A DNA stretch of 64,000 bases, from the NCBI GenBank assembly GCA_032128375.1, contig JAQBGU010000209.1:32501-96500 (forward strand), written 5' to 3'. This document shows, in pieces, positions 16,213-21,520 of this stretch (the first letter of the stretch is position 1; each line of letters opens with the position of its first letter). The notes beneath the pieces were generated by a model, which saw only the letters and a list, made by a program, of their open reading frames with translations, ran no database searches and was not told the origin of the DNA. A program made the position numbers and the translations under genes. The DNA is from Deltaproteobacteria bacterium (GTDB lineage: Bacteria; Myxococcota_A; UBA9160; SMWR01).

Positions 16213-17106
16213 TCAAGCCCGGCGGATCGACTCGCGGCCGGCGAAATCGTCAATGAATTGGCGTGCCGTTCGGCCCGATCGACTGGAACGCCGCAGTGCC
16301 CAGCGCAGCGCTTCTTCCCGCAACTCGGACGCGGGTGCTCGGATGCCCAGCTTCGCCGCGTAGTGGGAAACAATCGCGAGATAGGTGTCCTGCGTAAACG
16401 CGTAGAACCCGAGCGCGAGCCCGAATCGGTCGGAAAGTGCCAGTTTTTCGTCGATCGCCTCACCGAGCTGGAGTTCACCCTGGTTGTCGAGTCGAACTGA
16501 CTCGTTTTGCACGCCGGTCTCGGGCAACAGATGCCTGCGATTGCTGGTAGCGATGATTCGGACGTTGTCAGGAGGAGACACCAGGCTGCCCTCGAGCGCC
16601 GCCTTCAGCGCGCGATAGTCGGACTCGCCGGCATCGAACGAGAGATCGTCGCAGAACAGCAAGAAGCGATACGGGGCACCTCGCAACGCGGCGAGCACTG
16701 AGGGCAGATCCATCAGGTCGGATTTCTGAACCTCGATCATGCGCATCCCGCGGCTCGCGAAGCGGGGCAGCAAGCCCTTGACTGCTGACGACTTGCCGGT
16801 GCCTCGCTCCCCGTACAGCAAAACGTGATTGGAGGGAAAGCCAGCGACGAATTGCTCGATGTTCTCGACCAACAACGTTACCGAGCGATCCACCCCGATC
16901 AGGTCCTCGAGGTCGAACTCGATCGGTTCCTCGATCGCGAGCACACGTCCGCGCCCGCGGCGCGATTCCCAGCGAAACGCGCGGTACCGAGCGAACATCT
17001 CCTGGTTCGGGGGCTCACCGGCGAGGTCCGAAAGAACCTGCTCGGCAAGTCGGAAAATCCGGCCAAGCCGAAACCAGCGTCTCTGTTGGCTTGTATTCCG
17101 GTTCAC
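16213..17106 (-). CDS. DUF815-family AAA+ ATPase
   Basis: GERGTGKSS Walker A, FCDDLSF, ATSNRRHL, LSDRFGL, SRSGRTARQF. Confidence 0.9.
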   Translation of the reverse strand: MNRNTSQQRRWFRLGRIFRLAEQVLSDLAGEPPNQEMFARYRAFRWESRRGRGRVLAIEEPIEFDLEDLIGVDRSVTLLVENIEQFVAGFPSNHVLLYGERGTGKSSAVKGLLPRFASRGMRMIEVQKSDLMDLPSVLAALRGAPYRFLLFCDDLSFDAGESDYRALKAALEGSLVSPPDNVRIIATSNRRHLLPETGVQNESVRLDNQGELQLGEAIDEKLALSDRFGLALGFYAFTQDTYLAIVSHYAAKLGIRAPASELREEALRWALRRSSRSGRTARQFIDDFAGRESIRRA

Positions 17107-17185
17107 TTTTCCTTTTGACCCATGCTGGCGGATTGTAGACTGAGGCAGGCGACCGCGCGCCTGGTCGGTTACTTCGGAGCTTTTC

Positions 17186-17413
17186 GTGACGGACTTCCAA
17201 TCCCCAGGAGCAGATGAACGCGCCCGGGTGGGGCTGTGCTGTGACTGTCGCCAGGCATCGGCTCAGACGAGCGCACGCGGTAGTGCGTTCTGGCGATGTC
17301 GACTCTCTGAGACGAATTCGAAATTCATGCGGTACCCGCCGCTACCGATGCATGCGTGCGAGGGATTCGAACCCAGTTGCGATCGCAGGCCCGACGGCAA
17401 TCCTCATTCCTGA
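17186..17413 (+). CDS. Small Cys-rich hypothetical protein (putative metal binding)
   Basis: GLCCDCR...SARGSAFWRC...RYPPLP..AC.GFE pattern; GGAG upstream. Confidence 0.6.
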   Translation: MTDFQSPGADERARVGLCCDCRQASAQTSARGSAFWRCRLSETNSKFMRYPPLPMHACEGFEPSCDRRPDGNPHS

Positions 17414-18015
17414 TCGATTTTCCAACGCTCCGGAAGAGGCTGACCGATGATCTCCAAGAAGCTCTCCAGGAAACGGTAAGTGAGACCCCAGACGACATGC
17501 CGGCCCGGCTCGCCGACCAGAATGCCGGGGAAACGGTTCCGGGTTCCACGCACCACCGGGTGCTCGATATGGAATCGCGAATCCAGAAGCGATTCGACCG
17601 GAAACCAAAAAGTCTGACGAACCTCGTGGTTCGGAACGAGCGGTTGCGGCTCGGTGACGTGAAAAACGAATGCCGAGACAACCAGTTCGCGAGCCGTCCC
17701 CGGCAGGCCTGGCGAATCGTCCAGCTGGCCGAGTAGCTCACTGTCGTCCAGTGAAAGCCCCACTTCCTCGAGCGTCTCGCGTTGTGCCGCGGCCTGGGGG
17801 CTCGCGTCAGTATCATCGACGCGACCTCCCGGGAATGCCATCTGGCCGGACCACGGATCGTCTTGCCGGTTGGCCCGCTCGATGAACAAGACCTGGAGCT
17901 CGCCCAAATGCTCGCAGAGCGCGATCGCCACCGCCGCGCGGCGTTTGGGCGGATCGGAGACGATTTGGGGTCGATACTGCGCCAATGCGCTGCGGATCTT
18001 GTCGATCGGTGCCAT
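17404..18015 (-). CDS. Nudix hydrolase, CoA pyrophosphatase (NudL-like)
   Basis: DPWSGQMAFPGG and AAAQRETLEEVG Nudix box; VVWGLT. Confidence 0.9.
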   Translation of the reverse strand: MAPIDKIRSALAQYRPQIVSDPPKRRAAVAIALCEHLGELQVLFIERANRQDDPWSGQMAFPGGRVDDTDASPQAAAQRETLEEVGLSLDDSELLGQLDDSPGLPGTARELVVSAFVFHVTEPQPLVPNHEVRQTFWFPVESLLDSRFHIEHPVVRGTRNRFPGILVGEPGRHVVWGLTYRFLESFLEIIGQPLPERWKIDQE

Positions 18016-18247
18016 GGCTCGAAGATACTCGACCCGGCAGCAGCAGGCCGCGCGCGAGCCCAGAGCCCACATACCTGCCTCTTCAGTTTTGTAGAGAGAG
18101 CCGAAGCCAAGTCGCAAAACCGCATTTCCAGGTCACCGAACGACAGACAATCGGCGGAACTTCCAGTACAACCCAGGCTTCGGAGCAAAAGGTTAGTCAG
18201 CGGCGAAGACGCGGGCTCGCGGACGGGCTGCTAAGGTATGCAGGCGG

Positions 18248-18284
18248 CGCCCGATTCGCGGACGCGCCGCCCGATTCGCGGACG
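18248..18284. repeat. 17-bp direct repeat, two copies, 20-bp period
   Basis: CGCCCGATTCGCGGACG at 18248 and 18268. Confidence 0.85.
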
Positions 18285-18338
18285 ATGCGATCGACACGCC
18301 TACCGTTGAACACGGATCGGCGAGCGGGGCCGGCAACG

Positions 18339-19499
18339 ATGGCCGATGGCACACTTGGCACCAGTACCAGTGGCATCAGCAAGCGCGTACTCGCAGTGGC
18401 GATCAACGACCGAGCCGGGGCAACTGCGCAGCTCAGCCACTTGGATCTCGACGCGCAGGTCGCGTTGGTCTGCAGCACACCGTTGTCGCGCCGCAGCGAG
18501 ATGCTGGGCTTGCTGCCGCGGCCCGAAGACGTGATCCCGTTGATACCCGAGGCGGAACTCTGCTTCACCGTGAAAGCGATGGGCATCAGCGATGCCGTCT
18601 GGCTGCTCGACTACTCGACCGTCGAACAGGTCGTGGCGTGTGTCGACCTCGACATCTGGAAGGGAACACTACCGGATCGCGATGCGCTCGACTCTTGGTT
18701 GGACGCACTCGCCGAGGGCGACGAAGAACATTTCTTGCGTTCGGTGCTCGGGCTCGATCCCGAGATCGTCGTGATGTACTTGAAGCACCGAGTCCACTGC
18801 ATCCAGAAGCCCGACGACGACGACGATTGGGAAGACCCCGACGGCGGTCTGACGATCGACGGCCAGTTTTATCTGGTCCCGATCCGGGAAGACGACGACA
18901 TCGCTTCGATCATCGTCATGCTGAAGTCGTTGTTCGTCGGGGACTATTGGACGTACTTCCGAATGATGCTCGCGGTCATTCATGAACTCGATTCCGCCAA
19001 CGAAGAATGGGCGCTGCGCTGGCGAACTGGGCGGCTCGAAGACCTGGGCTTCCCCCCCTGGGATCGAGCCATGCGAATCTACAATTTCATTCGGCCACAG
19101 GAGCGCACGCTAATTGACGACGGAACCGACCCGTTCGATGTAAACGCGTGGGACCTTCCGATTTGGCTACCGAGGCTCCCTACGACGCTCGACCACGAGT
19201 ACCTGTTGTTTCGAACTCTGGCGCAACTAGACGAACAGCAGCGCAAGGCTGCGCTGTTCACCTTTTTCGCGCTCGCCAACAAGGTCGCAGTCGCCGACCG
19301 CATGGAGCTGTCGGACGCGGAGTCTACGCCACGCGCGATCGACAAAGCGGCGAGGTTCGCATCGGCGGGCCTGGCGCATATCTGTGAGAGCAGCGGACGT
19401 GATCCGGTCGATGTAATCGGGAAGGTGGTGGTCGAGCGGTTGTTCTCGGTGGGGGCCAATCTGGACCCAGAAGCGTCCAAACCCGGCCCCTTCTTGTAG
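18339..19499 (+). CDS. DUF6178-family hypothetical protein
   Basis: ELCFTVKAMG, VDLDIW, EEWALRWRTGRLEDLGF, LANKVAVAD patterns recalled for this family. Confidence 0.7.
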   Translation: MADGTLGTSTSGISKRVLAVAINDRAGATAQLSHLDLDAQVALVCSTPLSRRSEMLGLLPRPEDVIPLIPEAELCFTVKAMGISDAVWLLDYSTVEQVVACVDLDIWKGTLPDRDALDSWLDALAEGDEEHFLRSVLGLDPEIVVMYLKHRVHCIQKPDDDDDWEDPDGGLTIDGQFYLVPIREDDDIASIIVMLKSLFVGDYWTYFRMMLAVIHELDSANEEWALRWRTGRLEDLGFPPWDRAMRIYNFIRPQERTLIDDGTDPFDVNAWDLPIWLPRLPTTLDHEYLLFRTLAQLDEQQRKAALFTFFALANKVAVADRMELSDAESTPRAIDKAARFASAGLAHICESSGRDPVDVIGKVVVERLFSVGANLDPEASKPGPFL

Positions 19500-19544
19500 A
19501 CAGGACATTCTCTGGACCAGCTCTGAGCCAAGAAGCAGACAAGG

Positions 19545-19575
19545 AAAAGGCCCGCCGATCAGATCGGCGAGCCTT
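19545..19575 (-). terminator. Rho-independent terminator downstream of the histone-like gene
   Basis: Minus strand AAGGCTCGCCGATC-T-GATCGGCGGGCCTT followed by TT: GC-rich stem ending in a U4 tract. Confidence 0.75.
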
Positions 19576-19620
19576 CGGAAGCCTTGCTTCGAGCTTCATT
19601 TACATCCGGATCGTCTGCGA

Positions 19621-19830
19621 TTACAGATCGACGGGCTTCAGGGTCTTGCGCTTGTTGCCGATTGCGCGCGCTTCGGCGGCAGCAATCATGTCGCGAACGA
19701 CCTTGTCCAGTGCGCCGTAGAAGTCGCTACTCACATTGCATTTCTTGGTCGCAGCCTTCGTGCGCGACTTCGAGATGATCAGGTCGCCAGCCTTCTTCGT
19801 TGTTGCTGCCTTCTTTTTCTTTGCTGCCAT
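19621..19830 (-). CDS. Bacterial histone-fold protein with Lys-rich N-terminal tail (69 aa)
   Basis: MAAKKKKAATTKKAGDLIISKSRTKAATKKCNVSSDFYGALDKVVRDMIAAAEARAIGNKRKTLKPVDL; histone RKT...DL motif; GGAGG RBS. Confidence 0.85.
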   Translation of the reverse strand: MAAKKKKAATTKKAGDLIISKSRTKAATKKCNVSSDFYGALDKVVRDMIAAAEARAIGNKRKTLKPVDL

Positions 19831-19926
19831 GCGTTCCTCCAATGCACCGGTTCAGTTCTTTGTTCGCTTGCGAGCAAAGCCGGCATTCACCCCCATGACG
19901 TGCCGTACGGCATGGTTTAGGCGCGC

Positions 19927-19954
19927 AGCATAGGCGTTATCGCGGCCTTCGCAA
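19927..19954 (-). promoter_or_regulatory. Putative sigma70 promoter of the histone-like gene
   Basis: Minus strand TTGCGA-16 nt-TATGCT about 100 nt upstream of the ATG. Confidence 0.45.
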
Positions 19955-20101
19955 TCAGAAAACAGCCTCCAGAGGCTCTGAAACGCCGTTTTTCGTGACT
20001 TGGCGGATCGAAGGATTCTCCCAACGAGTCGCGCAACGCTGGTATGCTGCGAATTCCTGGAGCGGAACAATGTCCGCTGCCGACGAGGAACCTCCACTTC
20101 C

Positions 20102-21520
20102 ATGGACTCTCAACACGACGATCTTGTGTATCGCCCCCTTCACGAACTGATCGGACTGCTGGCCGCTGGCGATCTGTCGCCGCTCGAATTGATGGAGACG
20201 GTTCTCACCCGCATCGATTCGACGCACGAGAACATCAACGCGTTCGTGGCGTTGCGTGATCGTGACGAGCTGCGCGCGGATGCCGACGCCGCTGGCGAAC
20301 GCATCGCGCGGGGCGAGGGACGGCTTCTGGAAGGCATCCCGCTGGGCGTAAAGGACTTAGAAGACGCGCAGGGCCTCGTCACGTCGATGGGCTCGATCCC
20401 GTACAAGGACAACACCGCTACCGCAGATTCCGTTCAAGTCGCACGACTCCGCGCCGCCGGCGCGATTGTGGTCGGCAAGACCAACGCTCCCGAGTTCGGC
20501 TACACCGCAATCACGAAAAACCTGCTGTTTGGCGCGACCCGCAACCCTTGGGACCTCGATCGCACGCCTGGGGGGTCGAGTGGCGGATCTTCGGCGGCGA
20601 TCTGCGGCGGTGTCATCCCGCTTGCGACTGGCAGCGACGGTGGTGGCTCGGTCCGTCTTCCGGCTTCGTTCACCGGCTGTTTCGGTCTCAAGCCTAGTTA
20701 TGGCCGAATCCCACACGAAACAGTGCAAGCATGGCCGATGAGTGACACAGCCGTGCACGGTCCGATCACGCGCTGCGTAGAAGACGCAGCACTGCATCTC
20801 GATGCGGTAGTGGGGAGCCATCCACTCGATCCCAATTCCCTGCCTCACCCGGGGATTGCGTACCGCGAAATACTGGCCGACTTGCCGACGGGGCTTCGCA
20901 TCGGCTACTCGGCCGACCTGGGCTTTGCCGTCGTACAGGCAGATGTGGCGTCCATTGTGTTCGACGCAGCGCGGAGCTTCGAGGCGATGGGGCACCATTT
21001 CGAAGAGCTGAAGGAAGGGATTCCAGAAATGGGACGCGACTGGGGGATGGTCGGCGCATTCGAACAGTTGGGCCAGCTCGGCCATCTGCTTCCCGATCGC
21101 GAGGACGATTTCGGACGCTCTTTCATTGCCGGCGTGAAGACCGGTACAAAAATGAACGCCGAGACCTGGGGTCAAGTGCGACGCCGTCGCGCAGACCTCA
21201 ACCGCTGGTGCGCTGCGATATTCGACCGCTTCGACCTGCTGCTCACTCCGACAGTACCCTTCGATCCGCCACCTGCACGCGGCCCGTTTCCGAGCCAGAC
21301 CGACGGACGCCCCCAACCGCCGGTTGGCGTCGCGAGTTTTACGATTCCGTTCAATCTTTCGTGGCACCCCGCGGCGACCGTCCGCGCCGGATTCTCGCTG
21401 GCGGGCTTGCCGGTGGGATTGCAGATCGTCGGGCCACGCCACCGAGACGACCTGGTGCTACAGGCCGCGTATGCGTACGAACGCGAAAGGCCATGGGCCG
21501 ACCGCTGGCCGACTCTCTAG
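20102..21520 (+). CDS. Amidase signature family enzyme
   Basis: GVKDL, GKTNAPEFG, TPGGSSGGSSAA, GSDGGGSVRLPA (Lys-Ser-Ser triad). Confidence 0.93.
   Translation: MDSQHDDLVYRPLHELIGLLAAGDLSPLELMETVLTRIDSTHENINAFVALRDRDELRADADAAGERIARGEGRLLEGIPLGVKDLEDAQGLVTSMGSIPYKDNTATADSVQVARLRAAGAIVVGKTNAPEFGYTAITKNLLFGATRNPWDLDRTPGGSSGGSSAAICGGVIPLATGSDGGGSVRLPASFTGCFGLKPSYGRIPHETVQAWPMSDTAVHGPITRCVEDAALHLDAVVGSHPLDPNSLPHPGIAYREILADLPTGLRIGYSADLGFAVVQADVASIVFDAARSFEAMGHHFEELKEGIPEMGRDWGMVGAFEQLGQLGHLLPDREDDFGRSFIAGVKTGTKMNAETWGQVRRRRADLNRWCAAIFDRFDLLLTPTVPFDPPPARGPFPSQTDGRPQPPVGVASFTIPFNLSWHPAATVRAGFSLAGLPVGLQIVGPRHRDDLVLQAAYAYERERPWADRWPTL

Follow-up and report, generated by a model that had tools for sequence, protein, structure and literature searches.

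Histones came to be accepted as bacterial proteins in 2023–2025, and to our knowledge those of Bdellovibrio and Leptospira are the only bacterial histones that have been studied. We analysed a gene for a basic protein of 69 amino acids (aa) in a 64,000-nucleotide stretch, hereafter the window, of a Deltaproteobacteria bacterium (contig JAQBGU010000209.1, assembly GCA_032128375.1; GTDB lineage Myxococcota_A, UBA9160, SMWR01). Three described histones are its closest counterparts. HLp of Leptospira perolatii (PDB 9QT0–9QT2) is reported to assemble into a stable tetramer, around which some 60 bp of DNA are wrapped (Hu et al. 2025, PMC12701072), with R49, N53 and R55 forming the tetramer network (PMC12701072). 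HTkC of Thermococcus kodakarensis (PDB 9F2C) is a ring-tetramer histone of the face-to-face (FtF) category, which is defined by a closed ring homotetramer (PMC11390915). Its R45 is described as forming a salt bridge with the opposing C-terminal carboxylate, and the R45A mutant as a dimer (bioRxiv 10.64898/2025.12.06.692711). HBb, or Bd0055, of Bdellovibrio bacteriovorus (PDB 8CMP, 8FVX) is reported to bind DNA as a dimer (PMC10627809), and the category of “bacterial dimers” is described by Schwab et al. (2024) as lacking R48 and N52 (PMC11390915). By analogy with HLp and HTkC, the window gene is likely to encode a nucleoid-associated histone of the FtF branch, a putative ring tetramer that wraps DNA.

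The identification of the protein as a histone comes from profiles of its relatives and from its predicted structure, not from single-sequence scans. Of 2227 candidates returned by a protein homology search, 1928 were homologues at E <= 0.01. Identity over the aligned part was 78–100% for the 120 homologues listed; 11 of them were named “histone H3/H4” (JGI) and one “DUF1931 domain-containing protein [Myxococcota bacterium]” (NCBI). Two others carried the name “citrate lyase gamma subunit”, which is probably the same artefact as a chance-level match of the window protein in the family scan. A first profile (A1), made from 46 close relatives chosen among the 120, matched the PDB entries 9f2c (E 2.1e-5) and 9qt0 (E 0.0083) and nothing further at E <= 10. 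An exhaustive search of 1.84 billion representatives then yielded 113 clusters at E <= 0.001, of which 40 were fetched. Alignment A2 (n = 30) combined 24 full-length singlets from these 40 with the 69-aa protein and five close relatives, leaving out doublets, fragments and long fusions. Against the PDB, its profile matched HTkC (9f2c) with an E-value of 4.4e-14 and HLp (9qt0) with 1.7e-12, followed by HBb/Bd0055 (8cmp, 8fvx; 4.7e-8 and 1.6e-7), HmvA (4e-4), NF-YB (about 0.01) and HMfA (0.28). Run one at a time against Pfam (E <= 1), the 30 members of A2 matched DUF1931 in 15 cases (best match, E 4.2e-5), CBFD_NFYB_HMF in 12 and Histone in five. In the close family of A1, one sequence out of 46 matched Histone and one DUF1931.

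An AlphaFold2 monomer model built with A2 had a mean predicted local distance difference test score (pLDDT) of 81.8. It consists of alpha1 (residues 21–27), a long alpha2 (35–58) and a one-turn alpha3 (66–68), and the protein ends one residue past D68. The nine best Foldseek matches were all chains of HLp, HTkC or HBb, with a probability of 1.00 and a TM-score on the target of 0.74–0.85. VIA-align superposed the model on these three histones, which were tied, with Z scores of 7.0–7.2 and an rmsd (root-mean-square deviation) of 1.1–1.4 A over 53–56 residues; the next tier was made of nucleosomal histones, at Z <= 5.4. The L2 motif of alpha3-truncated prokaryotic histones, R-x-T-xxxx-D as defined in PMC11390915, is present as R61, T63 and D68, with an R61–D68 clamp and the end of the chain at L69. 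T63 and D68 are invariant in A2, and R61 nearly so. By its profiles and its model, the protein is thus an alpha3-truncated prokaryotic histone, and the earlier sequence-only reading, which had proposed a stand-alone prokaryotic histone with a short alpha3, was right on this point.

That reading had also seen a Bd0055-like pattern, which the comparison did not uphold. In sequence, the protein is nearer to the FtF members than to the other histone categories, and its nearest relatives of solved structure are HTkC and HLp. Identity in the VIA-align superpositions was 33–34% to HLp and HTkC, versus 21–23% to HBb. In the alignments to PDB sequences R55, N59 and R61 align with R49, N53 and R55 of HLp, and R55 also aligns with R45 of HTkC. 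Within A2, N59 does not vary and R55 hardly does, whereas the residues of HBb at the positions of R55 and N59 are S and D. The C-terminus, located one residue past the clamp Asp as in HLp, is kept in 89 of 89 loci. The residues R23, K25 and T63, all invariant in A1, occupy the positions of K15, K17 and T57, by which HLp contacts DNA. The assignment to the FtF branch rather than to a Bd0055-like dimer is therefore based on the profile E-values, the identity and the R55/N59/R61 triad.

The gene is real and under purifying selection. Its 53-codon core is without gaps in 89 of 89 related loci fetched, which show a mean amino-acid difference of 17% and a mean nucleotide identity of 77%. Relative to the window, the first codon position shows 0.137 differences per site, the second 0.098 and the third 0.451, and it is this third-position bias that reveals the selection.

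The gene is also persistent across the class. It is single-copy in the window's genome (6.2 Mb, 91% complete). The A2 profile was searched at E <= 1e-5 in 301 genomes of the phylum, the window's own genome being excluded from the groups. A match was found in nine of nine genomes of the same family, 37 of 38 of the same order and 10 of 10 in the rest of the class, that is 56 out of 57 for the whole class, with E-values of 1e-23 to 1e-30. Among the 243 genomes of the phylum outside the class, 25 had a match, and these were weaker (1e-6 to 4e-17). This persistence across the lineage fits a chromatin role. To that extent it agrees with the earlier proposal of histone-based chromatin in the lineage.

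Many genomes of the same order (G078, G103 and G238, for example) had a second or third, weaker profile match (E 1e-6 to 1e-8), which suggests divergent paralogues. Among distant relatives, proteins of about 97–127 aa with two tandem copies of the fold were found (P0153, P0172, P0182, P0187, P0192, P0194, P0207, P0208, P0213 and P0221); judged by their sequences, these are natural pseudodimers related to the singlet family.

The content in HU/IHF-family proteins (PF00216) was examined in the same genomes. The window's genome has two PF00216 genes only, which score as IHF equivalogs (IHF beta, 126.1 bits for a cut-off of 115; IHF alpha, 130.4 for 111), and the PF00216 search of this 91%-complete assembly found no HU. 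Counted by hand, exactly two PF00216 matches were present in 55 of 57 class genomes, versus at least three in 212 of the 243 genomes in the rest of the phylum and two or fewer in the other 31; the third gene elsewhere in the phylum is a PF00216 member that may be HU. The sole genome of the order with no histone, G008 (99% complete), had four PF00216 matches, the most in the class. Because the class has two matches where most of the phylum has at least three, and because the histone-less genome has four, the pattern suggests that the histone stands in for HU, as is reported for Leptospira, which is described as lacking HU (PMC12701072).

The N-terminal tail was surveyed in 81 loci, namely the window locus and the best 80 of 432 relative loci confirmed among the species genomes scanned (462 candidate stretches). 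All 81 carried a basic N-terminal extension. Measured as far as the first residue of the core, it has a length of 9–20 residues (median 15) and contains 2–9 Lys + Arg (median five) and no more than two acidic residues. Only the M-A-A-K/R-K-K start and the charge are conserved, while length and remaining sequence drift. In bins titled Methylomirabilota the tail is a short version, M/V-A-K-K-G-K, and more distant relatives of 54–57 aa have no tail. In the model the mean pLDDT is 50 for residues 1–10 and 66 for residues 11–20, with low confidence for residues 1–13, so that the extension is probably disordered, as had been proposed. The proposed check of tail conservation in relatives thus came out positive, and the accompanying statement that most such histones are tailless fails for this family. 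Such a pattern would be more in keeping with an arm that contacts DNA electrostatically than with a docking site that depends on sequence. As the positively charged tails already described in PMC11390915 and PMC12701072 indicate, the tail is a known trait of the family rather than a eukaryote-like novelty; the first 6–7 residues of HLp are reported to be invisible in crystals (PMC12701072). In the literature covered here (the parts consulted of PMC11390915, PMC12701072, PMC10627809 and bioRxiv 10.64898/2025.12.06.692711), we found no test of the effect of a tail in bacterial histones.

Several observations weigh against an FtF histone acting on chromatin. In the hidden Markov model search proposed by the sequence-only reading, the 69-aa protein alone matched no histone family in Pfam or NCBIfam: its best Pfam match was PUF_NOP9 (E 0.11), the histone models PF00808, PF09123 and PF00125 gave no match at E <= 10, and PDB sequences gave just E 0.068 (9f2c) and 0.58 (9qt0). 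The Foldseek E-values, 0.006–0.13, all exceed 0.001, as expected for so small a protein, and a Z score of about 7 is middling for small helical models. HTkC itself has E, not N, at the position of N59, which makes this marker less than universal. As to HU, the assembly in which it was not found is incomplete, PF00216 figures are numbers of matches and not copy numbers, and the relatives are not independent, so that a single evolutionary event may explain the class-wide pattern. Finally, the monomer fold fails to separate the FtF from the HBb type (Z 7.2 for HBb, 7.1–7.2 for HLp). This last point would suit a Bd0055/HBb-type dimer that bends DNA or binds it end-on and forms no closed tetramer. 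The A2 profile does match HBb significantly (4.7e-8), the ring tetramer is proposed by analogy, and “bacterial dimers” have been reported from Myxococcota_A (PMC11390915). We nevertheless judge such a dimer unlikely, given that the E-values of the FtF structures surpass that of HBb by four to six orders of magnitude, the higher identity to HLp and HTkC, and the presence and family-wide conservation of both R55 and N59, which bacterial dimers are described as lacking (PMC11390915). In the Pfam and NCBIfam scans, the matches of the single protein to PUF_NOP9, XPRTase, citrate lyase gamma and BsmA were at chance level and were rejected.

Instead of serving bulk chromatin, the protein could also play a specific part in regulation or as a scaffold, as NF-Y and the TAFs do. 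Histone folds do serve as protein–protein scaffolds, the A2 profile has its weak NF-YB match (about 0.01), the genome keeps IHF alpha and beta, and the expression, abundance and DNA binding of the protein are predictions, a point that also weighs against a chromatin histone. Such a role seems very improbable for a stand-alone protein of 69 aa that has no extra domain, bears a strongly basic tail and keeps the DNA-contact positions of HLp (R23, K25, T63), the more so as its nearest characterised relatives are described as abundant nucleoid proteins (PMC10627809; bioRxiv 10.64898/2025.12.06.692711) and its gene is near-universal and single-copy in the class, with a strong Shine-Dalgarno (SD) sequence and a promoter and terminator of its own. 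A short open reading frame (ORF) with no Pfam match, in a high-GC genome rich in spurious ORFs, might finally be a chance ORF or have a mis-called start, in which case no protein would be made or translation would begin past the tail. Conservation has already refuted this reading. A chance ORF does not have 1928 homologues and substitutions concentrated at third codon positions. As to the start, the 81 equivalent starts are 74 ATG and seven GTG, with an SD-like word upstream in most, and the in-frame residues upstream of them are not conserved. Apart from the ATG, the only start in frame ahead of the folded part is a TTG, located four codons further upstream (73 aa) and lacking an SD. Between codon 1 and the start of alpha1, the window ORF contains no in-frame ATG, GTG or TTG, and therefore the tail is translated whenever alpha1 is; a start downstream of the tail, which the sequence-only reading had considered, is thereby excluded.

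For the FtF histone, the following mode of action can be proposed. By analogy with HLp and HTkC, a ring-shaped tetramer would arise when two handshake dimers close on each other, through contacts running via R55, N59, R61 and the free carboxylate of the C-terminal L69. Again by analogy with these two proteins, the positively charged rim of the ring would be wrapped non-specifically by DNA, whose contacts would involve K21/S22/R23 and K25 of alpha1 together with the L1 and L2 loops (N32–S35, T63). The flexible, Lys-rich tail of 15 residues would emerge beside the DNA-binding end of alpha1, where it most likely adds electrostatic contacts to DNA, raising affinity or compaction. In this lineage, probably a class of Myxococcota, the protein would then take over from HU the general packaging of DNA, which it would share with IHF, and its own promoter, strong SD and terminator would suit constitutive high expression. 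A bolder proposal, which we regard as a long shot, is that a tailed FtF histone displaced HU as the bulk chromatin protein throughout the class, and that its Lys/Arg tail is a regulated DNA-clamping arm, neutralised for example by acetylation. If true, this would be a bacterial counterpart of tail-based chromatin control.

Features of the gene unit are collected in Table 1.

Table 1. Features of the histone gene unit (window positions).
Feature	Position	Strand	Basis
Histone coding sequence, 69 aa; stop TAA at 19621–19623	19621..19830	-	ORF calls, translation, homologues, third-position substitution bias
-35 box TTGCGA	19949..19954	-	Read from sequence; TTG in 9/10 same-family sequences
-10 box TATGCT (most relatives: TATGAT)	19927..19932	-	Same-family alignment
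Inferred 5' untranslated region (UTR), ~90 nt	19831..19920	-	Start point inferred from -10 box, not mapped
SD GGAGG, 5-nt spacer to ATG	19836..19840	-	Sequence; SD-like word before most of 81 equivalent starts
Codons 1–15, Lys-rich N-terminal tail (6 Lys)	19786..19830	-	Low pLDDT; survey of 81 loci
Codons 16–69, histone fold	19624..19785	-	AlphaFold2 model, Foldseek, VIA-align, profile matches
Intrinsic terminator, 14-bp hairpin (19546–19576) + U-rich tail	19541..19576	-	Terminator scan, folding

The coding sequence ends with N-K-R-K-T-L-K-P-V-D-L, directly followed by TAA, and the strong ribosome-binding site announced in the sequence-only reading is indeed present. For the promoter, a consensus scan found none at its threshold of 9/12; the boxes, separated by a 16-nt spacer, match the consensus at 8/12 positions. 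They were accepted despite this score because they are conserved in the same-family genomes, and the sigma70-like promoter proposed earlier is retained on that ground. In an alignment of the window locus with the same locus from nine genomes of its family, the -10 box has the same TAT and the same last T in every sequence (10/10) and, as read by eye, TTG lies 16–18 nt upstream of this box in nine of the ten sequences. The terminator predicted earlier was recovered as well: a terminator scan flags the GC-rich hairpin, located about 45 nt past the stop, and the region (101 nt) folds with -42.2 kcal/mol (z -3.35 versus shuffles). A GC-rich hairpin followed by a T-rich stretch was seen by eye 3' of the stop in all ten same-family sequences. 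The flanking genes are a convergent DUF6178 gene ending at 19499 and a divergent amidase gene starting near 20071. The unit is thus monocistronic, as had been claimed, and spans the terminator to the -35 box, 19545–19954. A search for sequencing runs listed three that contain nearly all of the stretch, all of them DNA runs of one study and two flagged as a possible source, and no RNA run; this speaks neither for nor against expression.

Other elements were noted around the gene. A scan of 19300–20200 with Rfam gave CC1840 as its sole match, overlapping the terminator; with a sub-threshold score (24.1 bits for a gathering cut-off of 50, E 0.77), it was treated as due to chance. A hairpin, CCATG...CATGG, lies at 19893–19915 on the minus strand, a few bases after the inferred transcription start and within the inferred 5' UTR. 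Across the ten family members 75.9% of its cells were paired, versus 23–60% with the partner slid, its covariation score was reached by 23 of 500 shuffles, and RNAalifold found no consensus structure in the 5' UTR of these sequences; it may perhaps be an mRNA-stabilising 5' stem-loop. Directly upstream of the -35 box, at 19957–19977 (minus strand), a short hairpin, AGCCTCTGGAGGCT, with a T-run is flagged by the scan as terminator-like, and by eye an equivalent hairpin or palindrome with T-run was seen in most of the nine same-family sequences. No gene lies upstream of it on the minus strand within the window. It could be an insulating terminator or a UP-like element. In the protein, Cys31 (19738–19740, in K-K-C-N-V at the junction of alpha1 and L1) does not vary among the 46 close relatives. 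At this position, which aligns with F25 of HLp, other residues occur in many of the distant relatives. Cys31 could have a purely structural or a redox-sensitive role.

Downstream of the histone gene, at 16213–19499, the window contains genes for a DUF815 AAA-type ATPase, a NUDIX hydrolase and the DUF6178 protein. Neighbours recurring beside the histone gene in 80 loci were NUDIX (27), amidase (20), beta-eliminating lyase (17), DUF815 (11) and DUF6178 (6). Such recurrence indicates a resident chromosomal gene; no functional link of these five neighbours to chromatin was evident. Most titles of close homologues, and of relatives with the neighbours seen in the window, read Myxococcota or Deltaproteobacteria, and Myxococcota is the probable phylum.

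Cores 67–91% identical to that of the window were found in bins titled Myxococcota, Planctomycetota, Methylomirabilota, Eiseniibacteriota, Latescibacterota, Krumholzibacteriota, Spirochaetota, Gemmatimonadota, Acidobacteriota and Verrucomicrobiota (loci L004–L083). Some of these titles may be wrong, since the gene order of the window recurs in loci that are labelled Spirochaetales or Opitutales. A tree of the 81 cores (53 columns) was mostly unresolved, with 50 of its 73 inner branches open, and recovered neither a donor nor a direction of transfer. Phylum labels nevertheless cluster on it: 21 changes were counted versus a mean of 37.8 after shuffling, and none of 200 shuffles was as low. The high identity across labels reflects either unusually strong constraint or old transfers; in the former case it would fit a constraint as tight as that on eukaryotic H4.

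The gene belongs to a large, very conserved, uncultured FtF branch, the one with the most basic tails. Within one bacterial class, which has IHF and apparently no HU, it seems to have become fixed as part of the core genome. It is a good candidate for asking what a tail does on a bacterial histone and whether histones replace HU. The known kinds of chromatin protein are unchanged by it, as earlier publications have described the family, its occurrence in Myxococcota and the positive charge of its tails (PMC11390915, PMC12701072). Rather than a new kind of protein, the 69-aa protein is a further, uncharacterised member of the FtF family already published. What the present analysis adds, modestly, is class-wide persistence, the apparent absence of HU, a conserved promoter and a survey of the tail.

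Compared with known systems, the tail recalls those of eukaryotic core histones in being an N-terminal, Lys-rich extension of the histone fold that is predicted to be disordered. With about 15 aa, however, it falls far short of them in length, conservation of its sequence stops after the first 6–7 residues, and no recognisable modification motifs were found in it. Of the label “eukaryote-like” given to it earlier, the Lys-rich composition therefore stands and the rest does not: judged by sequence, the resemblance is one of composition only. HBb/Bd0055 is, like the window protein, an alpha3-truncated bacterial singlet with an RKT...D motif, and its monomer fold is equally close. It differs by its weaker sequence match and by the lack of the interface R and N and of a basic tail. 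HTkC is the best sequence match among solved structures, with its tetramer-critical R45 aligned with R55; in contrast to the window protein it is archaeal, has no tail, coexists with nucleosomal histones and carries E at the N59 position.

The comparison with HLp shows a different phylum and only about a third of the residues identical, S52, T56, T61 and F63 of HLp being G58, K62, V67 and L69 here. The window tail is longer and far more basic, with six Lys in 15 residues, the window's genome has IHF alpha and beta, and the SMC/MAP neighbourhood found in Leptospira is absent from the window locus. Both proteins are bacterial and stand-alone, of about 63–69 aa, with a short alpha2 and a one-turn alpha3, and superpose with an rmsd of 1.1–1.3 A at 33% identity. 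Both end one residue past the clamp Asp and keep the R/N/R triad and the RD clamp, as well as basic DNA contacts in alpha1 (K15 and K17 of HLp, R23 and K25 here) and disordered N-terminal residues. Leptospira, finally, is reported to be devoid of HU, and none was found in the window's genome.

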